Assembly: GCA_907165135.1 (NCBI GenBank)
Contig: OU015568.1
Location: forward strand, 16,317,208 to 16,381,207
Direction: 5' to 3'
Origin: Oikopleura dioica
Lineage: Eukaryota; Animalia; Chordata
DNA length: 64,000 nucleotides
Shown here: positions 20,941 to 64,000 of the stretch, one piece after another
Position numbering within the stretch: the first letter of the stretch is position 1
Layout: the number at the start of each line of letters is the position of its first letter
Program-made: the position numbers and the translations under genes
The notes under the pieces: generated by a model
What the model was told of the DNA's origin: nothing
The model's input: the letters and a program-made list of their open reading frames with translations, nothing else
Databases searched by the model: none

Positions 20941-21113
20941 TCTTGCTTTGATGGGGAAAGGAACTTTGGTTTTTAGAATGTTATGGAAGAATTGAGTTTT
21001 CTGCGAAATAAAACAAGCGAGATTCCCGCTGAAAGAGAGAAAATCAAATATTGAAATAGTATCGAATGTCAGTTAAGTAAATCCAGAAAAAGCGAAAGTC
21101 CAACCTTCAAAAA

Positions 21114-21266
21114 TCTGAAGACGATAACCGCAAGAATGACCGCATTATATTTTACTTGCGAGGACACATGTTGAATATTTACACCGGAAATGCTTCCGAC
21201 GAGATTGCAAAGATGACCGACATCGCTCTCGAGATAAAATGGTCGAAGATTCTGTGCGCCGATTGA
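21114..21266 (+). pseudogene. Orphan copy of the last exon of the coiled-coil gene at 44.3-47.7 kb
   Basis: Translates as SEDDNRKNDRIIFYLRGHMLNIYTGNASDEIAKMTDIALEIKWSKILCAD*, versus SEEEKRKNDRIIFNLRGHMLNIYTGNVSDEMAKMLDIALELERSKIPCAN* at 44265-44459. No upstream exons are evident. Confidence 0.7.
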
Positions 21267-21698
21267 TTAACAATAGTCTATTGTCAATAGAGTCCCAAAA
21301 TTAAGCCGCCTCTTTGATCCGAAATCGCTAAAAACCGGCCAAATTTGGATCCTTTTGCGATAAAAAGCCCGTTCACTTATCCTACCACGAATCTTTATTA
21401 ATTGAATCGAATATGAAGAAGGGAAACAGAAAGTATTCGATAAATCTCGTTTATCGAAGTGACGATGACAATTTGAAAGAAAAAGTATAATTTGGTTTGT
21501 ACAGTTAAAACGGAAGTATGAGATTAACCAGGTTGATCAAACTGACGATGATAATTTGAAAGAAGAAAAAAATTTATATTGTAAATCAAGTTTGAGCGGG
21601 AAGCGCGTTAGAAATCTCATGGTAAAGTTTCAGAATTGGGGTTCGCGCAAAGCCAATGTATTCTCGCGAACCTCAGATTCTGCCATCCTCCTCAATGG

Positions 21699-24600
21699 TT
21701 ACTTCGATACCCACTGATCGGCCGCCGAGGTGTCAAGATAGACGAAATTTCGCACAGTGTCAGATCCGGAAGCATCGTAGAAGTTGTCAGAAACGAAGAA
21801 ATCGAAATTTCCGGTCGACGGAGCAGATGCCACTGGGTAGCTATCCGTAAATAACGATTCGTTGTCAACAACAATTTGGGTATACATAAGGCCCGAAGCC
21901 TGATTAATGAATTGTTCGGCAACGATGGTGTACCATTGGCCCGGCGTGCATGGCTTGTCAACGTATGAGTGATGGTGAGCGCCGTTAGGATTGTTGACGC
22001 CGATGTAGAATTTGCTTTCATTGGGGTAGTGGAATATGATGAATTGCCGATCGCCAACTGCGCCTCTGTTTTCGGATGTAGACGTAACTCGGAGAATATT
22101 CTGCCATTCAGTTGTCGAAGATGAAGAGCAAAGAACATCGGCGACAATTTGATAGGATTGAGAAACAGTAACAGATTTCAAGAGATTGTTTCGGCTTGGA
22201 TTGACCCCGCAGCCATCAATTATGTTCGTACAGATAACTGGATCCCCTATAGATGGATCCAAACATCTGTCGACGGCGCATTGAGCAACTTCTGGTAATC
22301 GTTGGTAGACGAAGTTCTTGACTGTGAATGCGGTTCCGGCAACGTACCAGTCGTCAGCCACGAAGGCTTTAAGCTCTTGGCCTGCACCGAAGGCCTGAGC
22401 GTAAGCGTAAATCTTCGAGGAAATTTCAACTCCGTCATGAGTGACAGTGAACTGAACATTTTCTGGATCACCAGCAACTTGATGGACGTCGACGGCGATG
22501 TTGAACCACTGGCCATCAGTGCAGGTGAAATCTGTGTGGTGCTCGCCGTCTGAATCAGTCGGATCATTGACACCGATCCACATTTTTTGCTCGTCTGGGT
22601 ATCGGAAGAGGGCGAAGGTTCGATCACCAAGGCTGGTATCGTCCTCTCCTTTAGTAACGTGGAAGATATTTATCCATTCTCCGACAGGCATGCTGTGATC
22701 GCAGTATACGTCTGCAGAGAATTGGTAGTTGATGGAAGAGGTGAGGGTGGCGGCTTGGACATTTCTGACCGGGACGGCGGCGCAGGCGTCGACGATGACA
22801 TCGCAGTTGTCAAGTCCGGCACAAGGATCTTCAGAAACGCACGGATCTTCCGTGGTTGTTGTCGTAGTCGTTGTTGTGGTTGTAGTTGTAGTGGTTGTTG
22901 TTGTAGTTGTGACATCTTCGAATCGTTGATAGACGAAATTTTTGACAAAATACGTGGACGCTGCAGGATACCAATCGTCGGAGACGTATGCTTCAAGATT
23001 GCCAGCGAATGCTGAGCTGAACGGGTACGAACCAGATCCAAGAGATTCTCCGTTCTTAGTTACGGTATATTCAACAAGTTCTAGATCAGCAGCATTTTGG
23101 TTGGCTTCGACAGCGATGTTGAACCATTCTCCATCAGTGCAAGTGAAAGTCATGGCATGTCCGAAATCTGAGTCATTTGGATCGTTGACTTCAATCCACA
23201 GTCTGTCATCGCTAGCATATCGGAAAAGAGCGAAGGTTCGATCGCCGAGGGTGGTATCGTCGGTTCCTTGGGTAACGTGGAAAATGTTCAACCAGTCGCC
23301 GGTTGGCATGCTGTTGTGAGCACAGTAAACATCAGCGGAGAAGCGGTAGTTGACGGCGGAATTGAGAGCTCGGAGTTGAGTGTTTCTGACGGGTTCTACT
23401 GGGCAGGCACCAACGATTGCCTCGCAGCTGTCAAGGCCAGCGCAGGAATCTTCGGAGTGACATGGGTCTTGGGTGGTTGTCGTCGTTGTTGTAGTGGTGG
23501 TCGTGGTTGTTGTGGTTGTGGTCGTTGTTGTTGTGGTTGTGGTCGTTGTTGTCGTGGTTGTTGTTGCGTCTGCAAATCGCTGGTAAACGAAATTTTTGAC
23601 AAAATACGTGGACGCTGCAGGATACCAATCGTCGGAGACGTATGCTTCAAGATTGCCAACGAATGCTGAGCTGAACGGGTACGAACCAGATCCAAGAGAT
23701 TCTCCGTTCTTAGTTACGGAATATTCAACAAGTTCTAGATCAGCAGCATTTTGGTTGGCTTCGACAGCGATGTTGAACCATTCACCGTCAGTGCAAGTGA
23801 AAGTAATAGCATGCCCGAAATCAGTATCTTGTGGATCGTTGACTTCAATCCAGAGTCTGTCATCGTTAGCGTATCGGAAAAGAGCGAAGGTTCGATCACC
23901 AAGGGTGGTATCGTCAGTTCCTTGGGTAACGTGGAAAATATTCAACCAGTCGCCGTTCGGCATGCTGTTGTGGGCACAGTAAACATCAGCGGAGAATCGG
24001 TAGTTGACGGCAGAATTGAGAGCTCGGAGCTGAGTGTTTCTGGTGGGTTCTACGGCACAGGCACCAACGATTTCCTCACAGCCATCAAGGCCAGCGCAGG
24101 AGTCTTCGGAGTGACATGGGTCTTGGGTGGTTGTCGTCGTTGTTGTAGTGGTGGTCGTGGTTGTTGTTGTAGTGGTGGTTGTCGATGTGGTGGTAGTTGT
24201 TGTTGTTGCGTCGGCAAATCGTTGGTAGACGAAATTTCTGACCACATAGGCTGAACCAGCGGGGTACCAGTCGTCAGAAACGTAGGCAAGAAGATTGCCA
24301 TCAAAAGCTTGGCTTGTGGCGTATGAGTTTGTGGCGATTTCAGCACCGTTATGAGTGACAGAGTACTGAACAGTATCAAGGTCTCCTTCGACTTGTCGTT
24401 GTTCGACAGCAATATTGAACCATTCACCGTCGGTGCAGCTGAAAGTTGTGGCATCCTCGAAATCAGTGTCAGTTGGGTCGTTGACACCGATCCACATTCT
24501 GTTGTCGTTTGCGTATCGGAAGAGAGCGAAGGTTCGGTCACCAAGGCTGGTATCGTCAGTTCCTTTAGTGACGTGGAAGATGTTCAGCCACTCACCAAAT

Positions 24601-25418
24601 GGCATACTGTGGTCGCAGTAAACGTCAGCAGAGAAGCGGAAGTTGACGGCGGAGTTGAGAGCTTGGAGTTGGGTGTTTCTGATCGGGGTGGTCGCGCATC
24701 CGCCAACGATCACCTGGCAGCCGTCAAGCCCAGCGCATGAGTCTACGGAAAGACATGGGTCTTCAGTGGTTGTTGTCGTCGTTGTTGAAGATGTGGTAGT
24801 TGTTGTCTTCCCGACGCAGGAGCTCTCCCAATCTTCTTTATTCCAAAATGGCGGTCGGAACTCGCCGTCGACGCAACGCACTCGGCCGTTAAAAGTTCCA
24901 TCTTCGCAGAAGACATCGTAACTGGCTCGCTTTTTGTTGATCAGCCTGGCAAACGTGAGCGATCCGTCCTGGATGCTTGTGGCGGCAGCTGCGGCGTCGC
25001 AAGGATGAGCTGGTTTTGGTGAGCATCTCAAGGTGGTTCCAGCGGGAAGATTTCTTGAGTAGAGGGTTAGAACGATCTTTTTTGTGTAGACTTACTTTCT
25101 AGCGATCGTAGCTGGATCTCCACATCGAGCCATAAATCGGACGCCGTCCTTTTTTGGCTTCGAGATTGATTTCTCGGTCCATTCCGGGTCCATTCCCTGA
25201 TTACAGATCGGATGGCATCTGACCTTGGATCTCAATTTGCCGTAACCTGGGCAAAGCCACGATCCATTCTCTACGGGAAACAGATCCTGTGTCTCGTCGA
25301 TTTTGGCATCGCAGAGAACTCGTCGAGCTTCTCTCTCGTCCTGAGTCAGCTGGTTGTACTGCTGAAAGTAGCCTCCTTGGACAACTCCGACGGCTGGAAG
25401 GTATTGGATGAGCTTCAT
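21699..25418 (-). CDS. Secreted ~1225-aa modular protein: Cys-rich N-terminus, five ~190-aa ConA/LamG-like modules with poly-Thr linkers; oikosin (house protein) candidate
   Basis: Exon 1 (25418-25096, MKLIQYLPAVGVVQG..) joins the 1110-aa ORF through a 42-nt GT-AG intron (25054-25095). Repeat unit ..WLNIFHVT.GTDDT.LGDRTFALFRY..CTDGEWFNIAVE..YVSDDWYPA; Thr runs of up to about 30 residues. Confidence 0.85.
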
Positions 25419-39544: not shown

Positions 39545-39727
39545 TTTCTGATTTCAAATACATGTATTACGATTCAAATAAAATCTCAAATGGTTTGATC
39601 TTTGTACTCAAAATGTCTCAATATTTGACTTACTCTCATGCAGCGAGAGTCTATTTTACTGTTTGCAGAAAATTAAATTTTGCCGCAAAAGTCAAAAACA
39701 AAAATATCCTTTTTCGTCAAAGAAAGA

Positions 39728-41975
39728 ATGAACGAGTTTCATCCAAGAGAATTGACCAGAGACGCTGTTGAGAAATGGCTGGAAAATTTCAAAAAGAAAT
39801 TGAAAAGAATGACGAGCAGAGATGATTTGGACAGATTGATTTTGTCGGTCGAGAGATACGAGTTTGAAGATGAACTTTGTGCTGAATGGTGGGAGGTTAT
39901 TTTTGAAAATGGAAAAGCAAAAGTTTCTGGTAAACATAGATATGATTCATATGAAGAATGTAAAATTTCTTCATTTCAAAAAATGCTCCTCGTCAAAAAT
40001 TCGCAATTCGAAGGACGAAAAATTAAACGCTCGGAACTCAAAGAAGAAACTGGAGAATGGATTCTCGATGAATCTTTAAAGCAAAAAATGATTTCTTCTG
40101 GAGGAGAAGCGATCGTTTTGGAAGAGAAATTTGGAGAATTAGAAGTTTCGGTTCGGGTTCAGGCTTTTGACTCGAAGCTTTTCTCGAAAGATGACGAGGA
40201 GTTGGCGTTTTTAATTCATCTTTCAAAAGGTTACTTTAGTTTTTATTCAGTTTTCTTAATCGAATTTAAGATTACGAAATCGCTCAAAACAATATAAGAG
40301 ACGACGCTCCAGTAATCCCAGTTCACCCAAACGTAATCAAAAATTTCTGCAACATAGAAATTTTTTCAAGCAAAGACGAGAAAAGAGAAGACTGCCTTGG
40401 ATTGATTACGATAATGGAAAAGTGCGACACTGATTTGAGAAGCAGATTGAAAAAAGAAGATTTGAGTTTGGAGGAAAGGAAGAGAATCGCGAATGAAGTG
40501 AGAGAGGGAGAAGAGTATTTGAAGGATATTGGAATTCTTCATTACGATAAGAAACCCGAAAATATTTTATTGAAGAATGGAGAATGCAAATGGATTGATT
40601 TTGGCACGATTGAAGAAAGAACTGGAAGGGAGAGCTATCTAAGAATGGGCTTCGCGAGGAGAGGGAGCAAATATAGAAGTCATCAATATTTATGTAGGTT
40701 TTAAATTGAAGTCACTTTATTATGATTTGCTTGCGGTTTGATTTATTCCTAGATGCTGGTTCTGCTGCTTTTTCGGAAAGTTCCCAACTTTATGGAGAAA
40801 TAGGAGGAGATGCATCACCACTTCACATTCTGATTCTTTGCGATTGGAAAACAGCTTGGAGTCTTCTCTTCAATCCAGTCGAAGAGGATGAAAGAGAGAA
40901 AATCAAAGAAGAATTGAAGGCAAGTCTTCGTCGCCGCTTTTGAAATAATAATTTCTAGTCTTGCAATGCTGAGTGGCTCTCAATAAAAACTCCATCAACC
41001 GAAGAAATCGAAAACTTGTCAAAAACAATTTCTCTAAAAAACGCGCCTTCTGATTTTTGCCTTGACGATCCGAATTTGACCAAATCATCAGCTTTGGCCA
41101 ATCTCAAGCAGAAACTGACAAGACAGATAAATTTCGACTTCGAAAATGTGACAAAGAATGTTTTAAATCAAAAAGAAAGCGATCTTTGTGTCCCCATTTC
41201 AGTTTCTGTTCTTTTGAGATGGGCACTCAAAAATGATTTGAAAGTTGGAGATTTGGAAATAGAATATTTTTTCACTCTCGAAAAAATCTTCACTTTTCTG
41301 ACAATGCTAATTTATCCGCGGAGTTTGGCTGGCTTCAATCTAAACCCGAAAAAGGAAGAACAAGAGTTTCAAGAAAACGAGATTGAATTGCTTCTCAGAA
41401 GAATGAAATTTAAAACGTATTTGAATGAAAGTGGATGGGAGATTATAAAAGGCGTACGAGTAAATGGCGATTTTAATTTTGAAAAAGGTTTTTATTAATA
41501 ACCAAAGTTAAGTTTCGTGAATCTGAATCAAATACATATTCTAGTCCTCCTCCACCACAACTTCGCCTTCTCCCGTCCTCTAACCGTCACCGGCTGTTAC
41601 CAGAATCCCGACGGCTCAGTAATTTTCCACCAAATGGTGCTGGACCGAATCGAAAACTCCGAATTCATTCTCCAAAACACTTTAATCGCCCATTCCGGCT
41701 CTCAAATAAAAATTCCTCTTTCTCGCGAATTCTACGCCGAATACCACTTCATGGAAGATTGCTACAATTGCTACAACGATTTCGTTTATTATGGCGACAA
41801 CAACGAGTTTTTAACTTTGACAAATGAACAGTTCGGCATGACAGAAGAAACGTGGTACCTTCTACCTCACGCGTATTCAATAATTCTCACTCCAGCTGAA
41901 GAAGATTCTTCAGATTCGTCAGAAGCATCTAGCTCTGAAAGTTCGGATTCAGAAAACAAGGTGTATTCGGTGTAG
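39728..41975 (+). CDS. Protein kinase + papain-like (C1-type) peptidase fusion protein, copy B (5 exons, about 680 aa)
   Basis: Introns 40230-40270, 40694-40752, 40920-40958 (GC donor) and one near 41490 give a single frame. Motifs HYDKKPEN, DFG, NQKESDLC, FHQMVL and LQNT. Confidence 0.82.
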
Positions 41976-50258: not shown

Positions 50259-50518
50259 TTTTCGTTAAGATTTGTAAGCCCACACCTCCTTTCTGTCAGA
50301 AAATGACATTGAACGGCCACATTTTGCGTAAAAGCAGTGTTTGAATCATTCGAAAATCGAAGTACAGAACTAGCGGGGCTCTGAATCGCCATGCGCACGA
50401 GGTGATTTACATGTTCCGTTGTTTCCGGTTGGCTTTTGGCCATCTGCTCAGACTATTGTCCCCGCTTTTGAGGAAGCCAGTAGAATATAAAGTAATCTTG
50501 TTTAATGCTAAAGATAAC

Positions 50519-50682
50519 GTAAACAATTTATAAACAAATATAAATAAATATAAATAAACATAAATATAAATAAACATAAATAAACATAAATAAACATAAA
50601 TATAAATAAACATAAATAAACATAAAGATAAATAAACATATGTAAACAGTCAATAAACGAAAACAAACAAAAAATAAACATT
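50519..50682. repeat. AT-rich tandem array of ATAAACATAA/ATAAAT units
   Basis: Direct reading; about 10 (A/G)TAAACA words. Confidence 0.9.
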
Positions 50683-51295
50683 TGGTTCGGTGCGCGAATG
50701 GTGTAAAACGAACCATTATAGACTAGTGTCATCACAACAGCGTGACACCAATCGCTCAGTAGAACCATGCGTCTTACGCCCTCTTTGGTGAGACTTATGT
50801 AATAAAAACCCGCTAGGGTTTGCGATTTTACCAAGTCAGAAAAAGCGATTTTTTAAAATGAGTCTGGAACGCAGATAAGAAAAATGAAAAGAATAGCCAA
50901 TAGTGAGCTTGTTGAATTCTAACAAATGAATATGTACTTTTTATAAAATGATGCTCGAAAACGAACTGGAAAAACAACAAAAGGAAAGAGATCTTACCTT
51001 TATTCATATCTTTCTGTCATCTTTAAACAAATAAAAAAAAATCGGAAATTATATCTGTCTCTAAATATTTATCAGCATATGGAAAACTTGAATGAGACAA
51101 TCTCTTTGAACCGAACTCCGTAATCTTCTTTGACCAGGGTTTCGCTAATCTCTTTGAACCAGAATTTTTGTGGTTGATGCATATGATTTATTTACGATAA
51201 AGATTTCCAATTTGTAATCATAGACAATCTTTGAACCAGCTTTTCCGAAAGTAAATAAAAGCAGCGATCAACACTTAAAATAAGTCAAAAATAAA

Positions 51296-52438
51296 ATGAG
51301 TACAGTGATCAGTGGTGAGATTCTTCCCGAGAGACTTTTTGCGTATCCGTTCCGGATTCTTTTAAGCGGCTCGTCTGGGGCTGGAAAAACTTTTGCCGCA
51401 AAACAAATTCTTCTCCGGAGAGATTTATTCCAAAAGAAAACAAAAAGAGTTATTTACTATTATCCATGCTTCTTAGAAGAGAAGCCAGTTGACTGGGAGG
51501 ATCTTACAATACCAGTGAGTTACAGAGTTGGTCTTCCGTCGCAAGATGAAATAGATTCGATGAGTCCTCATACTACTATTGTATTGGATGATCTTTATGA
51601 AGAAGCAATCCAAAGTCAAGCCATCGACCACCTTTTCCGAGTAACGAGTGGGAAAAGAATGTTGAATGTGATGATCATGACACAGAACAATTTCGCATCT
51701 GGAAAGTTTGGTCGAAATATCAGGCTAAATTGCAATGGAATATTTCTCCATAGAAATGCACTTGACAGTTCTATCAATAAAAGAATTTGCGCGCAAGCTG
51801 GACTTCAGAAAGCTTTCAAACGTGCTTCAGAAGACATTAAAGCCTTACAGTATCCGTATATGTTTCTTGACCAGTCGCCGCGGGCCTACGCCTGCAGCTA
51901 TCGGCTTTATACGGATATATTTGCTTGTTATCCAATCGTTTACTCAGTCAACGGAATGAAGGCTTTCATTGTGAGCTCTAACGATTTTAAACAGAATTTC
52001 GACATAATTGAAAAAGGAAACACCTACGAAGCCACTGAGAAAAATGAAGACAAGAGGAACACGGCGTGCAAAACAGTCGAAGTCTCGAGAGTCAGAGCAA
52101 AAGAAAGATGTGACAGCTTTACAGACGACTCGTCAGAGTCAGAGATTGAGAGAAAAAAATCAAAGTCGAAACGTAGAAGAGACAAACGATCACGATCAAG
52201 AAACAAGAAAAAATCAAGAGTCAAGAAAACGAAAAAACAAAAGCGAAGAAGACAGTCAACCTCCTCGGAAAGCGATCCAACAACAGAAAGCTCAATCACC
52301 GAAGAATCCACCTCTCAAGGATCAGAAATCACCGAAGAATCAGAGCTCACTGGAGGATCAGATTCAAGCCCTCTACGAAAACGTAGCAAGTGCTCCAGCC
52401 TTCTCAGCGAAAGTAGCGGAGTATCTCCGGAAGAATAA
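51296..52438 (+). CDS. Maverick DNA-packaging ATPase with a basic, then Ser/Glu-rich, C-terminal extension
   Basis: Walker A GSSGAGKT, Walker B TIVLDDL and motif IMTQNN. Confidence 0.9.
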   Translation: MSTVISGEILPERLFAYPFRILLSGSSGAGKTFAAKQILLRRDLFQKKTKRVIYYYPCFLEEKPVDWEDLTIPVSYRVGLPSQDEIDSMSPHTTIVLDDLYEEAIQSQAIDHLFRVTSGKRMLNVMIMTQNNFASGKFGRNIRLNCNGIFLHRNALDSSINKRICAQAGLQKAFKRASEDIKALQYPYMFLDQSPRAYACSYRLYTDIFACYPIVYSVNGMKAFIVSSNDFKQNFDIIEKGNTYEATEKNEDKRNTACKTVEVSRVRAKERCDSFTDDSSESEIERKKSKSKRRRDKRSRSRNKKKSRVKKTKKQKRRRQSTSSESDPTTESSITEESTSQGSEITEESELTGGSDSSPLRKRSKCSSLLSESSGVSPEE

Positions 52439-53276
52439 AATTCATAGCACCCATCGAAGAATCGTTAAAAAGCGATTTCCTCGAAGAAGAATTATCGTCG
52501 ACACAAAGTTTAAAATCTTCATGGGTGATCTCATAGTCTATAAAGGCTACAAATTTTCCAATCGTCACAATGTCTACATTCTTCTTATAATCGACTGTTT
52601 TTCTCGCTTTGTCTGGACACGACCTCTAAAAACTAAAGGAAAAATTGATGTTGCAAATGCTCTCAATGATATATTTCAAGATTTACCTGAATGGCCCAAT
52701 TCTCTGATAACTGACGAAGGCTTAGAGTTCTACAACTCTAATGTGAAAAAGATTCTTGATCGTTATGGACTCCATCATTACAGTATCAAAACAAAGATGA
52801 AAGCAAGCATAGCGGAGCGTGCAATCCAAACCATAAAGAAAAGACTTCAGCTTTATATGAAGACCAACAAAACAAAAAATTGGATAGATGCGCTGCCTCA
52901 AATTATCAAAGGATATAACTCTACACCACACCGCTCGATTGGAATGGCGCCTAGCCAAGTGACGCAAGAAAACAGAGCACGGGTCTTCGCTAACCTCTAT
53001 CCAGATATCGACTTGAAAGTGAAACCAAGGCTCAAAATTGGAAACGTTGTTCGAAAGAAAATTAAAAAAGACATATTTGAGAAGGGTTATACGGAAAATT
53101 GGTCTGAAGAGATTTACGTCGTTGCAGATATTCGCCAGCGTGCTGGAATCGTTTGGTACAAAATCGCCGACGAAGAAGGCAAACGTCAGCCGGGTATCAA
53201 ATATTACTTTGAGTTGAATTATGTCTGCGAAGATATTGAATCTCTACGGGACAAAAAAAGAGTTGAAAGTGCCTGA
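52044..53276 (+). CDS. Maverick retroviral-type (rve) DDE integrase
   Basis: FMGDL, YILLIIDCFSRFVWTRPLKTK, LITDEGLEF, KASIAERAIQTIK, WIDALPQIIKGYNSTPHRSIGMAP and FEKGYTENWSEEIY. Confidence 0.95.
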   Translation: MKTRGTRRAKQSKSRESEQKKDVTALQTTRQSQRLREKNQSRNVEETNDHDQETRKNQESRKRKNKSEEDSQPPRKAIQQQKAQSPKNPPLKDQKSPKNQSSLEDQIQALYENVASAPAFSAKVAEYLRKNKIHSTHRRIVKKRFPRRRIIVDTKFKIFMGDLIVYKGYKFSNRHNVYILLIIDCFSRFVWTRPLKTKGKIDVANALNDIFQDLPEWPNSLITDEGLEFYNSNVKKILDRYGLHHYSIKTKMKASIAERAIQTIKKRLQLYMKTNKTKNWIDALPQIIKGYNSTPHRSIGMAPSQVTQENRARVFANLYPDIDLKVKPRLKIGNVVRKKIKKDIFEKGYTENWSEEIYVVADIRQRAGIVWYKIADEEGKRQPGIKYYFELNYVCEDIESLRDKKRVESA

Positions 53277-53598
53277 AATCTTCTTTGATAAAAACACCGA
53301 CTATTGTGTTCAAATTATTGACATTGGTTGCAATCTCATGACAACACCTAGAGACTTTGACGCTGTTTTCATAAAATGTACATCAATCGCTTCTTGCTAT
53401 GGACTTCCGAATATACTCATGATTGGTCAAATACGCAAAGGCGATAGGTGGTGTCATTTCCCAGATCAACGCTCCCCTCTTTGCTTCCCGATAAACATAT
53501 ATAACTGGAGGGAAACAAAATTTTCAATTGAGATCGAAGATCCAGCGAACCTTGTTCAGCAATTTTGGATTCAAATCCTGATTAAACCGAGAGAATGA
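53221..53598 (+). CDS. 125-aa beta-rich protein; possible minor capsid (penton-like) protein
   Basis: ORF lies in the capsid module, with alternating hydrophobic strands and C-terminal FWIQILIKP. The assignment is inference only. Confidence 0.4.
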   Translation: MSAKILNLYGTKKELKVPEIFFDKNTDYCVQIIDIGCNLMTTPRDFDAVFIKCTSIASCYGLPNILMIGQIRKGDRWCHFPDQRSPLCFPINIYNWRETKFSIEIEDPANLVQQFWIQILIKPRE

Positions 53599-53810
53599 AA
53601 ACGATTATGACAAGCTTGGAAAATAAACCGCGAAAATGGTTCCCCAAATCTCAAACCGGTGCAGGCAAACGAAAATCAAAAAACGGTCCAACAAAGTTAA
53701 AACTCGCTCCCCCGAGAAATCCACAATCAAAAAAAGGAAAGAAAAAACGAAATACTACAACAAAAGATTTGAAAAAGTCAAAGAAATCGTCGAAAAAGAA
53801 AAAGGCATGA
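53595..53810 (+). CDS. 71-aa Lys-rich basic protein (candidate DNA-condensing core protein)
   Basis: KKGKKKRNTTTKDLKKSKKSSKKKKA; starts and ends in ATGA overlaps with its neighbours. Confidence 0.55.
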   Translation: MKTIMTSLENKPRKWFPKSQTGAGKRKSKNGPTKLKLAPPRNPQSKKGKKKRNTTTKDLKKSKKSSKKKKA

Positions 53811-54226
53811 AGACATATATTATCGTCAAGCGATTGGAACGAATTTATAATTTTTACGGTGTTTTTGCAATTGATACTTTACCTCGTCTTACAAATTATC
53901 CTGTTTTTCTTGTTGTAAATTTATCGCCAGAAAACTCTTATGGATCACACTGGATAGCATTACATATTTTTCAAGATAAAATAGAAATTTTTGATAGCTT
54001 GCGCATTAAAAAATATCCAAGGCAACTGACAGACTTTTTTGGCGATAGAGAAAAAATCTATTTTCAACGTGTGCAGTCAAACTCATCTTTTTTCTGCGGA
54101 CTCTATGTCTGTTTTTTCGTCATTTACCGTTCTCTCTATTCTTTTAAATCTTTACAAACGATATTCTCTAAAAATCTGTCTCAAAATGATAAAATGCTGA
54201 TAGACAGACTGTCTGAAATTTGGTGA
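53807..54226 (+). CDS. Adenain-like (C5) cysteine maturation protease
   Basis: GSHWIAL (His), EIFDS (Asp) and VQSNSSFFCGLYVC (Gln, Cys). Start placed at the ATG overlapping the upstream stop. Confidence 0.9.
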   Translation: MKTYIIVKRLERIYNFYGVFAIDTLPRLTNYPVFLVVNLSPENSYGSHWIALHIFQDKIEIFDSLRIKKYPRQLTDFFGDREKIYFQRVQSNSSFFCGLYVCFFVIYRSLYSFKSLQTIFSKNLSQNDKMLIDRLSEIW

Positions 54227-54275
54227 ATAAATGGTGATAGAAAATATTAAACATAACTCTTTTCAGATTGAAATA

Positions 54276-55578
54276 ATGTCCGAAGTCGAATATTACGACC
54301 AGAAGGTTGTCAAACGACATTATCCAAGGGAACAAGAATCACAAACAGGACGTCTCTGTTTTCAGTTTGATGCAGATCCAAACCTTATGCTCGTGAAAAA
54401 TAAAATTGCCATTCATATAACAATCGAATTGAAAAAAGGCTATATACCATCTAACGGATTTGCAAGCAAACAATTTGGAAAAACTGAAGTCGCTGTCAAC
54501 TCCCAAATCATAGACAGTTCCAACTCAAAGTATATAAAAGAAAGCTTCACTAGTATTATCGAATTTTTAGCTCGCACTATTTTATGGCTGATTATTTGAC
54601 GAAGCGGACAAACTTCGACCCCTTGTACGTTGCAACCGGATTCCAGATAGAAGGATACTATGATGAGTATCACTATGAAACAATACAGGATGAAACCTCG
54701 AAGGAAACTATTCGAACTGGTCGGAGACCTCAGTGCTTTGTCAATGAAGCTGGAAACTATGTTTACGAACTTATTTTCCTGCCTACTCATGGATTCTTCC
54801 TTGAAAATAAGCCACTACCTCTCAACACAGATCTTTCAATCTCATTCTATCGTCTGAAGCACGAATTTTCAACAATATTCCATGGAACTGAGTTTCAAGA
54901 AAAGTATTCACCGGGGGAAGTACTCAAGATCACTGACGCCTATGCACTCGCTGAATATGTCTCATCACCAAGTCTGCGTAATTACTTTTCAAGAATCCGT
55001 TCGAAACCGATCTCCTACAAATTCAACGACACTATGATCACAACTTTGACTCTTCCTAAAGGAAGAAAACATGTCCTTTTGCATAACGCGCTTGGTGGAA
55101 ATACACCAGCATATATTTTCTTTGGCCTTATTGACACTAAAGCTCTGGAAGGAGATGACTCGATGGAATCGACAAATTTCTCATTCAATCCAGATTTGAT
55201 CTCAGTCAATGCGATGCTTAATGGACAATCGCTAAATGGATATCCTCAGGTGAATGAAAATATCGATTATCATAGGGCTCTATTTTTTTTTAGAAAGTAA
55301 CAAATCAGTATCCGATTCTATCGTATTGGAAATATCAAGACGCTCTTGGTCGAATCGCTCAGAGTGATCTTTCCTATGTGCTTTCAATGGAAAACTACAA
55401 AAGCAACACAATTTTCGGACATGAATTCGAGGGAGAAGAAGTTTCTCAAGGCTGGCTCTCATTCTCATTCGATTTCAAAGAAGATCTGACCAAAGACCTC
55501 TCAATTGTCATTTGGTCAATTGTGTCTGTTAAGCTTACGATAGATGAGCATAAACAAGTCGAAAAAACTCTTCTTTGA
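54276..55578 (+). CDS. Maverick major capsid protein (double jelly-roll type), 3 exons, about 405 aa
   Basis: Introns 54530-54570 (41 nt) and 55250-55293 (44 nt), both GT..TTTTAG, join three ORFs in frame. Motifs VAVNSQII..SHYFMADYL, TPAYIFFGLID and AMLNGQSLNGYP. Position beside the protease fits a capsid gene; the fold is inferred. Confidence 0.75.
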
Positions 55579-55699
55579 TTATATGCCAAGGTAAATAAAC
55601 ATAAATACACAGGGTGATAAAAAATGCACTGAATAACCAGCGCTTTAGGACTTCTTGTCTTCAAGTTGACACTTTCCCATTATAAAAAAAAAAGAAAAA

Positions 55700-56026
55700 A
55701 TGCTTGTGACAATCAAAACTTTCACTTTTCGATCCTTTAAAAATGGAGGCTTCTTCAAAGTAAAAGGAACCTACTTACCAGCACACGAGACTGTCAATGA
55801 CCCGTCACAACCTCCAGAGGAAATCAGCTTACAGAAATTTACAATCAATCATAAAGCCACAACTGATTCTTTTGCCACTCTTCTTGCTCATGCTGAAAAC
55901 CAATGTCCAGTCGATGTTATTCTCGTCTCAGACGCAAAGCAAACCGCCTGGGAGAAAGAGAAGAACATCCCTCCATCCTTTGCATTCAAATTCAACGATG
56001 AATTGTTCCAGAAAAAGAACGAGTGA
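55700..56026 (+). CDS. Hypothetical 108-aa Maverick protein
   Basis: ATG-initiated ORF inside the element; no recognisable motif. Confidence 0.45.
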   Translation: MLVTIKTFTFRSFKNGGFFKVKGTYLPAHETVNDPSQPPEEISLQKFTINHKATTDSFATLLAHAENQCPVDVILVSDAKQTAWEKEKNIPPSFAFKFNDELFQKKNE

Positions 56027-56429
56027 AATACTCCTCTGTTCTCCAACTCTGTTTTCATTTTCTAAGTTTCGTTCCCCTGTCATTTTTCTCTATGTTTCCT
56101 TTCTCCTTCTTTTCTGAATTACCTCAATTCGACTTTTTTAAATTACTCGAGTAATAAATTCAAATGGTGCAAAATAATCGTGTTTGTCTATCGAAATATT
56201 GAAAGAATAAAAGTTTTCATGGTAATTACTCTTTTATTAAAATTTGAGAGCATCAGCAACCCTGTCTATGGATGAGCGGTCATCCGTGATCAGAAAGAAA
56301 AACAAAAGCATCTTTATTTCTTGCGCTTAATCTGCTTGCTCAACCTTTTAATTTATGCAGATAAGGCAGTAAAGAGCAATTTTTTTCGGACTTGTCGAAA
56401 AATCACTCTATTTCATTCGCAAATCAAAA

Positions 56430-56729
56430 ATGTTACTTTTTGCACTCGAATCTTACACTTTTCATTCCCAACCAACAGGCGGAGGACTATTCAAGCTCAA
56501 CGGGTTCTACGTCGACACAACACAGAAGTGCTACAAGTCAATACCGATCACTCTCTTGGTAAACTTCGGAGAATCTGCGCTGCGAATGGAATACGTTTTC
56601 GGATCCCTTCGAGTTCGAATGATGAAAAAAGAGCCCTTCCCAATCAAATTGATAAAAGGACCGATGATCAACCGACATAACCTCAACGAACCTCCAGCTT
56701 ACTTCTTTGAATTCTGCGATTCTGATTAA
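56430..56729 (+). CDS. Hypothetical 99-aa Maverick protein
   Basis: ATG-initiated beta-rich ORF inside the element. Confidence 0.45.
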   Translation: MLLFALESYTFHSQPTGGGLFKLNGFYVDTTQKCYKSIPITLLVNFGESALRMEYVFGSLRVRMMKKEPFPIKLIKGPMINRHNLNEPPAYFFEFCDSD

Positions 56730-56835
56730 AATTGATCGTGGTTAGAAGATAACCTGAAATCAGAAATTTCTTCTTTCCATTCAACATGTGACTGTTTCTG
56801 CAATTTTGCACAATATATTCGGTATCAATCAGAAT

Positions 56836-57381
56836 TTATTTCAATTTTGTCACGTAAATTGAACATGTCAGTAATTTGGTAACATTGAAGCCGCTCTTTC
56901 GAAAATTGCTCTGGTTCTGGTGAGCTCGTTCGGTCAGAGAGGGTATATCTTCCCATCTGGGGATGTTTTGGAGAAACTTTTTCTTCGAAGAATTGTCCTT
57001 GATCAAAAAGGGTTCGATCGGTAGCGCGGTAGACCTTTGAGACCAGCAAAATCTGTAGCGATCGTTGACATTTTCTGTGAGCACACTTTCAAGCAGCAGA
57101 CTAAAATCAACAGAACATCGAAAAGGTGGTGAGATTGCTTCGAATAAATCGTCTACGAGATTGTAAAGATTGAAATTCTTATTGATAAGGAGGCGGATGT
57201 GAGCATTCTCAACAACTCGTCCTGGTTTAGGCGGTGGGATGATTACTCTGTTTTGCAGTTGGTCTAATCTTTCTGTCTCCTTGAAGAATTCAAGCTCGGT
57301 TTTCGATAATGGCATGTAGGTTCCTCCATATTCTTTTCGGAGGACTTCTAAGTCTTCGCGCTCTGATTGATAAAAAGGCAT
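56836..57381 (-). CDS. Hypothetical ~180-aa Maverick protein downstream of PolB
   Basis: Uninterrupted ORF with probable start MPFYQ. The C-terminal KSGFNVTKLLTCSIYVTK loosely resembles Polinton/bidnavirus PolB-associated domains (weak inference). Confidence 0.55.
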   Translation of the reverse strand: MPFYQSEREDLEVLRKEYGGTYMPLSKTELEFFKETERLDQLQNRVIIPPPKPGRVVENAHIRLLINKNFNLYNLVDDLFEAISPPFRCSVDFSLLLESVLTENVNDRYRFCWSQRSTALPIEPFLIKDNSSKKKFLQNIPRWEDIPSLTERAHQNQSNFRKSGFNVTKLLTCSIYVTKLK

Positions 57382-57460
57382 GCAAAAAAAAATAATCAAA
57401 CTGGTTTATAAAGAGAGCAAATGTTTATTCAATTGGAAAGAAGGTAGTCAAGCATCGAGT

Positions 57461-60400
57461 TTAGAGTGGTTTACCGTTAAGGGTGAGTGGTTCGCAAGTG
57501 ATTCCGTCTGATTGCACACGCATTTTAACAAAAATGTTTGACAGTAAAATTTTTTCAATCGAAACTCTTTTCACAATATTATCAGATGTTGATCTCAGCA
57601 TTCGTAATGTAAATGAGTTGTTTGATTTTTCAGTTCCATAAAGGCAATCCAAAAATTCTGTCAACCTCAGTTCTACGGCGTGTGGAACTCCTTTGGTCGA
57701 GCGCTTTGTCTCCTTTTTATCGTAGCCTATGTACATTTTATTCCCCAAACAGACGAGAGCACCGTCGTCTGTATACCATTCTTCTTAAAAATAATTTGAG
57801 ATAAAGAATCAATGTCAGTGCTTACTTTTAAGAAGTCCAGGTGTTTTTTCGTTCAAGGTTGTATTTTCAAGGACAAGCCATTTGTGCCATTCTTGTAAAA
57901 ACTCATCTTTTAGCTCCTCTCGAACGCAGGGTAAAAAGGTGGCTTCCATAAGTGATCGATTACTATCTTCACATTCACGGCTTCGAGTAAAGGCTAAAAA
58001 TCGATAATATTTGATTTCTATGAATAAACTTACAGATCGCCAAACTATCGGTATCACAATAGTTAAGTTTGTAGGATCCAGGCTTTAAGTACTTATGAAG
58101 AAAATTGTATACAAATGTGAGAAAGTGTAATTTAGAGTTCTGTAAAATGGCAACGCCCATTACAGTTGGCTTATCGTCTTTGATTTTCATTTTATCAAAA
58201 GTGACTTCTGAAATAGTGTACTCGCCATTCTCCTGACAAAGAGGTTCTGAAGATTTGTATGTTGGCTTAACAATAGATCGCATAAGCTGTTTCTCGTCAT
58301 TGTACTTCATATTTGGTCGGTCAACTTGCTCTATTGCCTTTCCAAAACCTCCGCAATTTCCAATTGTTTTGAAAGCAAGCGCAAGCGAGTCTTTGCCGTT
58401 TACGATTGCATTTACCCGACCGTTTGTGATTGAATCCACGTAGTCTTTCAAGCATGTTGTAGCGCGAAATTGTGTGAAAGATGTTATATTTGTTATTTTC
58501 AAACCGATTTCGAGGTAAAATTTGGCGAGACTGGTCAAAAGAAAAAGACTTTTACCATTAAAAGTCTGAACAACAGTCTCTTGTTGACATTTTTTACCGA
58601 GTTTGGCGAATTGTTCCTTCATGTAGGGACTCAAATATTCGTCAGTTATCATCATTCGTTGAATAACTGGTGGAAAATTGATATAAGATATTTTTTTATA
58701 GATTTCATCGGGGCAACTTACATCAGCCACAATAAATCCGAAGATTCTATTGTTCTTTATACCTTTGAGAATTGAGTCTTCAGTTTCCTTTAGTTTGAAG
58801 ATATGACCCCAGTATTTGGAAACCTTTAGAGTATGGTTAAGTATACGTCTACCCTTCCATTCACACTCTCTCATTACATGCACTTCTCCTGAGGAGCGGA
58901 GTACTTTATACTTTTCTTCCCATCGTAAGTCTCTTTCACCTGGGTTGCAATCTTGGCAATATGTGTGAAAATAACATCCAAGAAATTCAAAATAATGATT
59001 AACTCCATCAACTTGCGCGTATCCATCGATTTTATAGTCACCGATCTGATGCTCACCACGATAATACTGATGCTCGAGAGGGATTCTTTCACCAGTTGAC
59101 GAGACAAGAATCGGACTAAATTCGTCGATGAAAGTAAGCCATTGCAGCGCAGCAAAACTATTGCCGGTTGACATGATAGACTTTCTGAAGAATGTGTCGT
59201 CCACTTTCGTCCATCTTATTCCTATTTCACATGTTAGACTTGAAAATAAATTAAAATCTTACCTGGAGTTGATGGTATCTCCATTTTTGTGAAAATAAAT
59301 AAAGGGCATTGAAGTCGAGAAACACCACTCTGGTAAAAGGATCGCCATTAGGAGCGAACTTTGCGTTTCTCGGAGCTTCTACACCTGGACGAAGTTCGGT
59401 ATAGCGGGAAAAAACATTAACGAGGCCACCAATGACGTTTTCTCTAAGAAGTTTATGCTCCATTCGAAATTTTTCGTGAAACGAGTCTAAGTAAGAGTTA
59501 AATGATTTATAAGATGGTTGACTTACAGATGAATGGAGAAGTCTTCGAGAACTTCTCAAATACACAGGCCATGGCGAATTTCGGCAGGCTCATACAATAT
59601 GATGGATCGATTTTAAAGACATCGAAGAAAACCCGAAACTGGTTGTCGATAGCTTTCGCGAAAGGGTTAACGTCCATTAAATTATAATGCTTTAGCCAAT
59701 GGGCCATGGTAAAGTTTGGATTGATCTTTTGATTATGGTAAAACTCAGCTCTACATTTTTCATACTGCTTTTTATCGCAATGAGAATTATGTAAACTCGA
59801 AAAGAACTCCTCGAATGCAGGAAACTCTCGATCATTTATAATGTCGATAACGCTCGCGTATTTTTCATATGGCCAGATTGATTTTGACTCATTAACCCCA
59901 TATTGCTTCAAGTAACCATCTAATCTTATGGGTGAATTGAAAAGCAACGCGTCTTTGAATTGAAAGTGGGGAGTTGAAATCGAGAAATAGCTCGAGCCTT
60001 TTTTAATGACATTTACTTTGGACTTGTACTTTTCACGCAAAAGTGGTAGTAAATATGGGGCCATCACTTTTAAATCGAATTTAGCTGAATTAAATCCGTA
60101 AACGTCCATCGTCGCATAATTTTGTAATTCACGCTTGAAGTATCGTAATTTCGCTCTTTTCGACGGTGGAACTTGAAAAAAGAATAAAAAGGACACTTGT
60201 CATTAACTAAATACCTTGCTTCATGACAATATTTTCAAGATGCTCGATGACATCTGTCAGTTCTTTTGGTAGGTATTGTCTTTCGCGGAGCGCGAGAGAC
60301 TCAATCTCGTCGACAAACTTGACGACAAGTTGCTTTGCGGCATCATTGCTGTCATCTCTACGTATAAAGAATCGACTGTATCCAAAGTTGCTCCCTATCG

Positions 60401-61392
60401 CGATACAAAGGAGACGTAATTCTGCATTTTCTGTTGTTTTCTTATTCGTTATCTCAATTTTACGCTCGAGGGTTTCGATATCAAACGTGACTTTAACAAG
60501 AAATGATTATTTGTTAAATTATTAAGACTTACGATAACGCGATTTTCGAAAAGAACGCATCTTTTCCGAAAGATACCCAAATTCGATAGCTTCGATGATT
60601 GGATAAACACTTAAGCCATATGGACGTTGTCTCGGTATGATTTCTTTCACTCTTGTCAGACACTTCTTTTCGTGCTTATCCATGTTTGCCTTTTCCTCAC
60701 TTTCATATCCACATTGTTCGTTTGAGCATTGATATATCTGCCCGAAACCTTTTTCATTAAAGATATATCTCAAGTCAAGCGCAGATCTTGAAAGGATCAA
60801 ATCGTCCTTTTACACAAAAATTTAAGACTTGATTTTGCTCATGTTCTTTTGGCTTAAAAGATTGCAAAAGTTTATTTAAAAGCGATTTTGAGCGGATGAC
60901 CTCATAAAACTTTAGCTCATATTTGAGATCTCTTGCAATTTTTGAAAGATCTTTCGCGAAAACCATGCTTGGACCGCCAAAAATTTCGAATCCTTTGATT
61001 TTGAGAGAGTAGTCAAGCTCACATTGGGGTTTCACTGGCTTGTGCAGTAAGGAAATGAAGGAGGAAAACGGATAAAGATAGAGTGAGCTCGGAAGAATTT
61101 CAATAATCAGACTTTCTTTTGTTAAAACAACATCCTCTTTTAATTTTAGTTTAATATTACGTCCTTTGTTAATGTTTTCTACTTCGACTATGTGGAGGTT
61201 ATAGTGATTAATTATTTCAGTTATGTTTCTATCTCCTACTGCATCTGTCAAGTTTTTGCAATAGGAAATGAAATTTCTGGATGCAAGCTTTCCGTCTTTA
61301 AAAAGCTCCTTGTAATTTTGCCCATATTTTTTTATCTCTCCTAAAGTTATCCAGGGATTGAGACCAGGAATCAAAAAACTAAAACGTTTCAT
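57461..61392 (-). CDS. Protein-primed family B DNA polymerase (pPolB), 8 exons, about 1200 aa, with one apparent 1-nt frameshift
   Basis: Splicing rebuilds ExoI YLTFDIET, ExoII YGFNSAKFD, ExoIII-like HYNLMDV, IGGLVNVF, LDFNALY, KTIGNCGGFGK, YCDTDS, PGLLKKEW and KRSTKGVP. Introns 60491-60532, 60172-60214, 59487-59526, 59222-59262, 57994-58033 and 57784-57825, plus an ambiguous one ending at 60807. Confidence 0.92.
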
Positions 61393-61506
61393 GCTCTAAG
61401 GACCATTCTCGGAAATGAGGATAATCCGGATCTTTCACAGTAGACTAAGCTCAATTGATTATTCATGCTCAAATACGCTAGAAGATGGCGCTAGAATGGA
61501 AGAAAG

Positions 61507-62139
61507 ATGAGGACAAAGAATTTGATTGCGTGCAAAATGCGAGAATTTGAGCTTGAGAGCATCACAGACGACATGGCAATTATTTATTGTCGTGTTTGCT
61601 ACAAAAAAACGTCTCTTGCACCGTCAATAAGCGTTATTCGACGTAGCGATCTGCACGGTAATCATGTCCCTGGTGGTCAGTGTCGAGAATGCTCACGACG
61701 ACACTACTATCCATTTACGCCTGCGGAATGGGTTGAATTCAAAAACAATGCGTTTGAAATCAACGATAATCATTATGTCGCTAGAGACGCACTGATTCCA
61801 TCACAATTATGCAGAACATTCACTCGAGGAGCATGTATTGGCAGCATCATCATCAAAGCTCGTCAACTGAAGCTTGCTTCGCGGAAAATAACCCAGGAAG
61901 AAAGGAATCTTTGCGTGGTCTGTTTCGAAACAGACAAACCCATGGTAACATGCTTAGAAATTAGTTTATTATAATGATTTTAGGATCCTATGCCATGCAA
62001 ACATTACGTTTGCGCTGATTGCCATGCACAACTACGATCAATTGACAACGAAGAGATGTCAAATCGATGCCCCTACTGTAAAACTTTCATAAAGTACACT
62101 CATCTTCGTCAGATTACAAAACACGAGCGTCGAATCTAA
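61507..62139 (+). CDS. C3HC4 RING-finger protein with an N-terminal Cys-rich Zn module (2 exons)
   Basis: A 39-nt intron (61945-61983) joins CVVCFETDKPM to DPMPCKHYVCADC..RCPYC, completing C-x2-C..C-x-H-x2-C-x2-C..C-x2-C. Confidence 0.85.
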
Positions 62140-62341
62140 CATCAGTTTCTACCACAACTCTTTTGCTTTCGTCAACATCATTCCATACAAAATTTTATCA
62201 AGAATGCTTATCTGTCATGAAATAAAAAAACAAAAATCAAGGTTTTCGACTTGTCAAAATATATTATGTTTCAAACATGTAAGTCAGTGTAAGAATGTAA
62301 ATCAGTGTGTAGCAGGAGAAGAAAAAGCAAAAGATGAGATG

Positions 62342-62884
62342 TCAATATCGTGCTTGTCCATGATTTATTTGTAGGCGCGCAGGTTGTCGACGATTTCTTC
62401 TAACTAAAAGAAATTCTTTTATATTGAGTGACCATGTCTTCAATTTACCTTGACGATTCTGCGGGGCGTTCGCGATAAGAGGAGCTTCTCGTAGTGGGAT
62501 AGGAGCTTCGCGTAGTGGGATAGGGCCGACGTGGGCTTGTTGATTTTCCAATGGAGGATTTACATGTTCAGGTGCAACAATGTGTGGCTGATTTTCGATG
62601 ACTGGATTCTCCGGATTGTGACCACGAGCGATGTTGAGTTGTTGATTGATTCTTTCTTAATTTTCCAAATTAGCCTTGTTTTCGCCATGATTTTGAAACT
62701 TACGCTGAATGTAGGCGACGAACACAATGTAGACGATCAGGGTTATGAAAAGCGCAATGGCGTCATTGAAGGCTTGTTTTTTCGGTTCGATGGTTGGCTC
62801 TGGAGTTATTGGTTCGATGGTTGGCTCTGGAGTTATTGGTTCGACAACTGAACCATTATTCGGGCCAAGAGGTATATGGATCAT
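62342..62884 (-). CDS. Small single-pass membrane protein with Pro/Thr/Glu repeats (3 exons)
   Basis: Introns 62656-62703 and 62404-62448; (EPITPEPTI)x2, TM AIALFITLIVYIVFVAYI and (PIPLREA)x2. Confidence 0.65.
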
Positions 62885-62992
62885 ACTGAATATTCTTTTT
62901 CTCAATTCTAAGTCAAAATTTCTAACAAATTATTGTTTTATCAGTATGTTCGTCAGACTCGATATTTGCTGTTTTCAGTGAGGGAAAGAGCT

Positions 62993-63421
62993 TCAAATTT
63001 CTTCAGGAAGGGGGCCGCTGATGAGTACTAAAATAATCATTTATAAGGGTCTCAAAGAAGCCAAAACTAACGTGTTGATTTCGGAGCTTTTTTCGTTTTT
63101 CTTTTCTTTGTGACGGTGGAGAGGACAACAATCGTCAGGATCATGTTGAGAAAGACAACAGCGAGAAGGCAGTAAAGAATGAGGGTGTATCGCTCGTCTT
63201 CGATGAGAGTTAATGATTGTTGAGTAAAAACTTCTTATTACCGTTGTTGTTCTCAGAGAGTTGAAGATGCGGTTCTTCTACAGCTGGTTCTTTCGCAGCG
63301 TCTTACGAAGGTTTCAAGAAAAAAAATTGTCCTTGTATGTACCTTTTCTAGCACAGAGCTCTGTGAGGTAATCTGATGAGATGTAATCATATCGGTAGTT
63401 GTCGTAAGAGGAGTCTTCCAT
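62993..63421 (-). CDS. ~99-aa single-pass membrane protein with a polybasic juxtamembrane stretch (4 exons)
   Basis: Introns 63302-63342, 63198-63241 and 63028-63071; TM YTLILYCLLAVVFLNMILTIVVLSTV followed by KKRKTKKAPK. Confidence 0.65.
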
Positions 63422-63506
63422 TGCGAATCAGTCTAATAGAGAAAAAACGAAATATTTAGACACTCAAATTCTTTCTATTCAGTTAAAATAACGCGTTCTT
63501 TCTCTT

Positions 63507-64000
63507 TCATGTCCAATTCCAGCAAGGTCGATCGTCTTCTGTAGTCAAATCGTCATCTGTTCTTTGATCACGCTCGTTGTTCTCGGTCATTTCAACTAGA
63601 TAGTTGTAAACATCTTGATAGAAAATAAAACTACAAACTCACCATTTTGCTCATAGAGCAATCGATTCGCCAAGCTCACTCGTAAATCGAATACGTAGTT
63701 CTCCCATCGTCGTCTTATTGTAAGCGCAAATGCTCGAATGCGTACCGCTTTTTTTCTGATGAGAAATCCAAGCAGTACAAGGAAAATGATGACTCCTAAA
63801 TAACTTTCACTATTGCTAGCCTTTGTCTTTGAAAAAACCTGTAATGCCCGCTGAAACTGCGATAATCTGCTGTCTACTCCAATTGCTGAACATCGATGCG
63901 ATTTCGGTGTCCACATTCGTTGTCTGCTGTGCAGGGTCAGAGGTCGGGTTGGTCATTTTGTCACCGCTTCTTGTCGACACAATCGTTGAATCCACCACAG
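63507..64000 (-). CDS. 3' part of a single-pass membrane protein with a Thr/Ser-rich ectodomain; starts beyond the window
   Basis: Introns 63796-63838 and 63596-63642 join IIAVSAGITG|VIIFLVLLGFLIRKK and an acidic tail. Confidence 0.6.

Follow-up and report, generated by a model that had tools for sequence, protein, structure and literature searches.

Probable inherited spliceosomal introns in the capsid and polymerase genes of a Maverick/Polinton element of Oikopleura dioica

We analysed a 64,000-nucleotide (nt) stretch of the genome of the larvacean Oikopleura dioica (assembly GCA_907165135.1, contig OU015568.1, positions 16,317,208 to 16,381,207 of the forward strand), hereafter the window. 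Its final part is occupied by a Maverick/Polinton element that carries all six core Maverick genes, namely packaging ATPase, integrase, protease, major capsid protein, penton and pPolB (protein-primed DNA polymerase B). The capsid gene and pPolB are divided by eight short gaps that very probably represent spliceosomal introns inherited within the lineage, and a ninth gap lies in an adjacent RING gene (Table 1). Mavericks are already known in O. dioica (PMC5240408).

Gene content of the element and its nine gaps

A preliminary description, made from the sequence, had assigned the element to the Maverick/Polinton group and had considered its integrase, protease, ATPase and capsid genes to be intact, and the assignment to this group is borne out by motifs, profiles and folds. 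The integrase matches Pfam PF00665 (E 8.9e-09, passing the cut-off), the match of the protease to Peptidase_C5 (E 0.0011) falls under the curated cut-off, and that of the ATPase to Pox_A32 is weak and below the cut-off (E 0.024). Between the window and two metagenome loci described below, L001 and L002, identity amounts to 75-76% for the integrase, 69-70% for the ATPase and 47-51% for the protease, and the ATPase and protease are conserved and syntenic in relatives. Relatives of pPolB carry PF03175 and are 37-48% identical to the largest window exon; exonuclease and polymerase motifs are visible in the exon chain. By eye, the start of the largest exon resembles a VSR nuclease domain. A VSR nuclease insertion in pPolB characterizes the Vsr-type pPolB2 subgroup (PMC10748475). 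The closest named relatives are O. dioica gene models.

Structure prediction, which had been proposed as a check, supports the capsid assignments. The capsid fold was examined on P0024, a continuous relative of 397 residues that is 54, 38 and 33% identical to the three window exons; its model is a double jelly roll (pLDDT 94.8) that matches iridovirus, PBCV-1 and mavirus capsids with E down to 6e-15, and through this relative the window capsid is predicted to be a double-jelly-roll major capsid protein. The product of 53221-53598, near the capsid gene, is by its model a single-jelly-roll penton: an eight-stranded sandwich (pLDDT 85) whose best match among 48,161 chains is the mavirus penton (Z 9.9, root mean square deviation 2.8, 121 aligned residues), followed by Sputnik chain N (Z 9.1), with TMq 0.64 to an adintovirus protein; a Foldseek search against PDB gave nothing at E<=0.001. 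Capsid and penton proteins of Mavericks/Polintons are treated in PMC4028283. The small basic open reading frame (ORF) after the penton has a counterpart between penton and protease in most of 13 loci examined, near and far relatives alike, and may encode a DNA-binding core protein and protease substrate. From the ATPase to the protease (51299-54226), the five ORFs overlap end to start in different frames; host operon processing could possibly underlie their translation from one strand.

All nine gaps announced in the preliminary description (two in the capsid gene, six in pPolB and one in the RING gene) are present at the sizes given there. They are bounded by GT and AG, measure 39-44 nt and contain 72-81% A+T, and retention of any of them would introduce a stop 2-23 codons past the donor. 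The motif halves said to be joined by their removal, RY-L/TFDIET, PGLLK/KEW and the RING cysteine pattern, are all found. The claim that the frame is restored with one exception holds for the gaps, as the phase agrees with both flanking frames in eight of the nine; the exception, 59262-59222, is out of phase because of a frame break just upstream, and pPolB contains two such breaks, not one. In the window and in relatives, donors are mostly GTAAG and acceptors are T-rich. A strict short-intron scan produced eight matches in the element, six of them listed introns, compared to a mean of 1.2 and a maximum of 3 in 10 shuffles; the pattern was written with these introns known, which makes it a weak test, the strong one being the comparison with relatives. 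Introns of O. dioica host genes have medians of 48-51 nt (PMC8008620), with a peak at 47 nt (PMC4122922), and the element introns, very short, A+T rich and GT-AG, fit the major-spliceosome type of this species.

Three alternative gene structures were rejected. Both candidates for the seventh pPolB intron that had been listed as ambiguous are coding: 60900-60807 (94 nt) aligns residue for residue with one continuous L002 ORF, and 60463-60422 (42 nt) is covered by a gap-free match of 83 residues to P0015. The idea that capsid intron 2 is instead a homopolymer slip is incompatible with a downstream frame that starts after a stop, and relatives have the gap.

As a separate, post hoc observation, the six pPolB introns (window 57784-60532, L002 7577-10324) are all in phase 1, so that the internal exons of L002 are multiples of three (276, 645, 225, 1188 and 168 nt); this pattern could permit exon skipping or reflect insertion bias.

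Table 1. Features of the element, in window coordinates (L001, L002 and L019 are metagenome loci)
Feature	Position	Strand	Remarks
Maverick/Polinton element	50479 to window end (64000)		at least 13.5 kb; gene set and left end motif
Candidate target-site duplication	50473..50478	+	six bases before left end; no partner within window
Probable left end	50479..50700	+	AGTAG start, then AT-rich 10/16-nt tandem array (50509-50652)
Packaging ATPase	51299..52438	+	Walker A GSSGAGKT, Walker B IVLDD; low-complexity tail; no intron
rve integrase	52044..53276	+	D-D-E motifs; start uncertain, conserved from ~52371; no intron
Minor capsid protein (penton)	53221..53598	+	125 residues; predicted single jelly roll; newly identified, not named in the preliminary description
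Small Lys/Arg-rich ORF	53595..53810	+	QxGxG motif; candidate core protein
Adenovirus-type cysteine protease	53807..54226	+	His, Asp, Gln, Cys motifs; no intron
Major capsid gene	54276..55578	+	exons 54276-54529, 54571-55249, 55294-55578; 405 codons, stop-free chain
Capsid intron 1	54530..54570	+	41 nt, phase 2, GT-AG
Capsid intron 2	55250..55293	+	44 nt, phase 0, GT-AG
Conserved ORF	55670..56026	+	32-33% identical in L001/L002
Conserved ORF	56836..57405	-	unbroken in window; found in L002
pPolB	57461..61392	-	seven exons; two frame breaks in window copy
pPolB intron	60491..60532	-	42 nt, phase 1; directly before Exo I motif TFDIET; also L002, L019
pPolB intron	60172..60214	-	43 nt, phase 1; also L002, and L019 by eye
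pPolB intron	59487..59526	-	40 nt, phase 1; 37 nt in L002, 281 nt in L019
pPolB intron	59222..59262	-	41 nt; past polymerase motif A; 46 nt in L002, absent from L019
pPolB intron	57994..58033	-	40 nt, phase 1; immediately past motif C YCDTDS; also L002, and L019 by eye
pPolB intron	57784..57825	-	42 nt, phase 1; inside PGLLK/KEW; also L002, L019
C3HC4 RING gene	61537..62139	+	two exons; accessory or neighbouring gene
RING intron	61945..61983	+	39 nt, phase 0; in-frame stop inside
Short ORFs	62200..64000	-	two with hydrophobic stretches; GT-AG candidates; candidate part of element

Intron positions in relatives

The evidence that carries the interpretation comes from comparing intron positions across Maverick copies, a comparison that the preliminary description had called for. 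One metagenome scan yielded 20 loci (L001-L020) with 31-70% capsid identity to the window, and gaps were sought between protein anchors that flank each site, splice-site sequences playing no part in the search; rows for loci without pPolB or RING were dropped as chance matches (L001, L008, L010, L013, L015 and L018, and L019 for RING). A GT..AG gap (38-67 nt) occupies the site of capsid intron 1 in 15 of 18 locus rows; L006 has none and two rows are ambiguous. At the site of capsid intron 2, a GT..AG gap is present in 4 of 16 rows and no gap in eight; four rows are misanchored, three of them with both exons in one frame and the fourth (L010) with a match that starts further on, also in frame. 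L002 has GT..AG gaps at all six pPolB sites and thus carries all eight capsid and pPolB introns; in L019, three pPolB sites were recovered by the anchors and two more by eye, the intron after motif A being the missing one.

The shared gaps occupy the same codon in the same phase and have GT-AG ends, their lengths differ, and their interiors are unrelated: identity is 0.49 for introns at the same position (n=26) versus 0.53 for introns at different positions (n=182). Nor did introner-like copies of one sequence emerge among these introns, since every comparison with a window intron gave an interior identity of about 0.5. The underlying set of 34 introns, which leaves out L013 (the same as L012) and the 281-nt intron of L019, spans 37-67 nt with 8 of 34 lengths divisible by three; it was chosen from GT..AG rows, so that its 34/34 GT-AG ends are no independent count. 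By contrast, exons of the window and L002 are constrained, with nonsynonymous divergence (pN) of 0.13-0.35 and synonymous divergence (pS) of 0.76-0.91 in 8/8 coding stretches, a pattern indicative of purifying selection with saturated synonymous sites. The seven pPolB exons of L002 are stop-free in running frame over 1249 codons, its capsid exons form a chain of 405 codons, and retention of its motif-C intron would lead to a stop 27 codons on, before the conserved C-terminal motifs. The presence of the same introns in relatives at saturated distance, together with the stop-free L002, implies that these introns are older than the insertion in the window and did not enter a copy that was already dead.

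Proteins of further relatives bracket the same sites. The metagenome protein P0021 (1230 residues), presumably the product of one uninterrupted ORF, shows no additional residues at any of the six pPolB junctions; in comparisons of this type the first site of P0019 and the third site of P0020 appear misaligned and three rows are one-sided. Eight metagenome capsid ORFs (P0001-4 and P0007-10) switch to unrelated sequence directly past the intron-2 donor, and P0001 has an unrelated in-frame insert at the intron-1 site.

In a midpoint-rooted capsid tree of 54 rows, built on the exon-2 stretch and leaving out L013, L018-L020 and many protein matches, the rows with capsid intron 2 all fall in a single clade of 14 rows (support 100/98), which includes the window and O. 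dioica models; P0042, a weakly placed sister of this clade, may have intron 2 too. Capsid intron 1 is distributed over three parts of a clade of 43 rows (97/95), from which L006, P0024, P0067, P0030 and P0035 stand out by lacking it, and for this distribution an old gain followed by losses is the simplest explanation and repeated gain a possible one. In a far clade (L007-L018), another candidate intron lies near the capsid end, where 9 of the 13 loci scanned show a GT-AG gap. In all, intron presence or absence differs at five or more sites among the 20 loci, and the clade could serve as a compact model in which to follow how introns are gained and lost.

L019 shows several peculiarities of its own. 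Its 281-nt pPolB intron (5258-4978) owes its size to a tandem repeat of 12-nt units, and a comparable repeat is found upstream of pPolB (~7717-7986). Extra pPolB GT-AG candidates at ~6520 and ~3889, one of them inside polymerase motif B, are absent from the window.

The RING gene follows a different pattern. The O. dioica gene model P0171 (PF13920) is identical to its exons and omits the same interval, 61945-61983, which confirms O. dioica as the host. No other relative was found (one match among two candidates), nor any match in the 20 metagenome loci; this gene, grouped with the core genes in the preliminary description, is not core and is best considered an accessory or neighbouring candidate.

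RNA evidence and competing explanations

Taken together, the comparisons make it very probable that the O. dioica element belongs to a lineage with inherited, obligatory spliceosomal introns in the capsid gene and pPolB. Under this model, host RNA polymerase II would transcribe the integrated element in the nucleus and the host major spliceosome would remove the eight introns before capsid and polymerase could be made; pPolB would then copy the element as DNA and the integrase would insert the copy, as envisaged for Mavericks in general. Mavericks copy themselves as DNA, and with no RNA step nothing strips an intron once gained, which passes to all descendants. The introns would have been gained while the element resided in an intron-gaining host, with only their ends remaining under selection. 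Such copying to descendants fits the conserved ends, the free interiors and the introns that individual clades have gained or lost. That capsid, ATPase and protease are under selection suggests that particles may be made, and virion formation by the element appears plausible.

Several observations weigh against this model. The window pPolB has one frame break near 60810 and another between ~59300 and 59262. Both breaks lie at or beside short A/T runs. Assemblies often err at such runs, and decay and assembly error are indistinguishable here; as assembled, the window copy would be unable to make a full polymerase and would be either non-autonomous or affected by assembly errors. The left end has no inverted partner among the listed inverted repeats of the window and no right end was found within it; in terms of terminal inverted repeats and a 5-8 bp target-site duplication, the window offers the left end motif only. 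The AGT end motif is known from vertebrate Mavericks (PMC8097293), and AGTAGTA occurs in the relative L008 ~530 nt before the ATPase. With 39-44 nt, the element introns stay a little below the host medians and are GT-AG without exception, and three scans of viral_contigs returned no relative.

The RNA data also fail to lend support. Mapping of reads, which had been suggested as a check, gave no joints at predicted intron ends among the reads listed, and a few unspliced molecules at one L002 intron. Four RNA runs under the same species label placed 99 reads on the window, nearly all partial and diverged and with no joints; no RNA data set was listed as containing the window stretch, and some variant letters of these reads match L001-L003. 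Run X7, which bears an O. dioica label and behaves like DNA, contains L002 unspliced at ~100% identity, a match that ties L002 to this species label. Two poly(A) runs, X4 and X5, cover L002 thinly and in both directions. The L002 joints listed (15 of 149) all fall in a host repeat at 230-390 and none at an intron; one contig of X10, a run that may be DNA, crosses the motif-C intron unspliced (L002 7660-7970, gapless at depth 2.8), as do two X5 reads at position 7803. These molecules could be pre-mRNA, antisense read-through or DNA carry-over, and the reads on L002 neither show nor exclude splicing. At the integrase start (window 52372-52462), X4 and X5 additionally contain reads of at least two other Maverick families, one matching none of seven loci compared.

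The strongest competitor differs from the preferred model solely in excluding virions: the introns are real and inherited, and the element spreads only within genomes, as a transposon or by host descent, its capsid being kept without infectious particles. We consider this a serious possibility, somewhat short of even. It is consistent with the failure to find viral_contigs relatives, with the position of L002 beside host repeats and its near-identity in X7, and with introns that bind expression to a compatible spliceosome; against it, there is little reason for capsid, penton, ATPase and protease all to be retained if no particles form, and pN lies far below pS for the capsid, ATPase and protease. 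At the opposite end stands an old, still-spreading, virion-forming polintovirus lineage of larvaceans and perhaps other zooplankton, whose capsid and polymerase would need the host spliceosome, whose introns would be gained and lost like those of host genes and for which splicing would act as a host-range filter or latency switch; this extended reading is tentative and, on present evidence, rather unlikely. Under it, the six phase-1 pPolB introns would allow in-frame exon skipping.

Domestication as a host locus, with common introns reflecting orthology among Oikopleura populations, is improbable. With ~70% protein identity, L002 could be the counterpart of the window in another host lineage, the stretch upstream of the L002 ATPase showed no end motif, and the public annotation carries these genes as host gene models. 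However, several diverged copies lie on different chromosomes of one O. dioica annotation, L002 and L019 have common introns although they represent different families under the same metagenome assembly prefix, and the whole viral gene order and end motif are kept. Still less probable is that the gaps are unspliced and mark separate ORFs, recoding or assembly artefacts: the unspliced molecules at one L002 intron, with no spliced read listed, agree with this view, but independent metagenome contigs have GT..AG gaps of variable length at the same sites and retention would cut the polymerase before its conserved C-terminal motifs. Least probable of all is a fossil into which the host put introns after integration and death, an idea favoured by the very high intron turnover of O. 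dioica (76% of mapped introns at new positions; PMC4122922), by the two frame breaks and by the mostly post-integration entry of dinoflagellate introners into Maverick-like elements (PMC12166617), and contradicted by the recurrence of the eight positions and phases in relatives whose synonymous sites are saturated, where the intron ends are conserved and the interiors unrelated, and by the unbroken chain of L002 with all eight introns. Thus, of the two options that the preliminary description had offered, a spliced, still-propagating lineage is favoured, whereas for the window copy the gain of introns after insertion is rejected.

Some additional features deserve mention. The L002 counterpart of the conserved ORF at 56836-57405 holds a 37-nt GT-AG gap (L002 6895-6859); an atlas search with this ORF found no usable family. 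The region 62200-64000 contains GT-AG candidates at 63838-63796, 63634-63596, 63071-63028 and 62448-62404, and four of its ORFs, scanned against Pfam, gave no match. Elsewhere, the window holds two inverted, ~82% identical copies of a kinase-like multi-exon gene (18752-21268 and 39677-41975), a minus-strand ORF of 1130 residues (21699-25091) with four ~210-residue repeats separated by threonine runs, and about ten copies of a dispersed miniature inverted-repeat element (2100-50260), one of them just before the Maverick.

Comparison with known systems

The general statement of the preliminary description that Maverick core genes are usually continuous ORFs agrees with the literature. Intact vertebrate Mavericks are described without introns (PMC8097293), nematode Mavericks have intronless core genes and intron-containing cargo (10.1101/2022.07.12.499685), and two further studies assume that Maverick-type elements are intron-free (PMC10120064, PMC9356565). 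A study that gives a definition of the Maverick/Polinton family excluded chordates from its search (PMC10748475). In the excerpts of the literature compared, which include PMC5718144 and 10.64898/2026.07.28.741278 and stop short of the founding Maverick and O. dioica genome papers, nothing describes conserved introns of the spliceosomal type in the core genes of Mavericks. Intron-split core genes, as predicted here, are a departure from the usual intronless description. This has practical consequences: one survey, on the grounds that such elements "do not contain introns", relies on a prokaryotic gene caller (PMC10120064), another treats an element as degraded if its ORFs are not intronless (PMC8097293), and such reliance on intronless ORFs would cause spliced lineages to be missed or scored as fossils. 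Furthermore, conserved introns in pPolB and the capsid gene argue for nuclear expression that depends on the RNA processing of the host, a point of relevance to the replication of Mavericks and to their possible movement between hosts.

Use of the host spliceosome by DNA viruses is familiar from adenoviruses and from chloroviruses and pandoraviruses, which are not integrating Mavericks, and splicing in adenoviruses mainly joins leaders and alternative ends. Within O. dioica, the gene models P0005, P0006, P0015-P0020 and P0171 encode proteins that run on across the window intron sites; these models are automatic and mostly unnamed and, compared at the protein level, may or may not each contain the intron.

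Animal Mavericks of vertebrates (PMC8097293) and nematodes (10.1101/2022.07.12.499685, PMC10748475) share with the window element pPolB, integrase, ATPase, protease, capsid and penton as well as an AGT-type end, and differ from it in that the window capsid gene and pPolB are split by introns conserved across families. Introns in Polinton-type genes are also known from cryptophyte and other protist Polinton-like viruses, but these are not spliceosomal: they are self-splicing group I introns of 309-376 nt, and the gene that holds them is a small one upstream of the capsid (PMC12220804). In the introner-carrying eupolintoviral elements of dinoflagellates (PMC12166617), intron-type inserts likewise occur in Maverick-like elements that keep capsid genes. 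Those introners are mobile copies that entered mostly after integration, with ~25% in coding regions, and the excerpts of that study describe no conserved positions, whereas the interiors of the window introns are mutually unrelated and their positions appear to be old and inherited.

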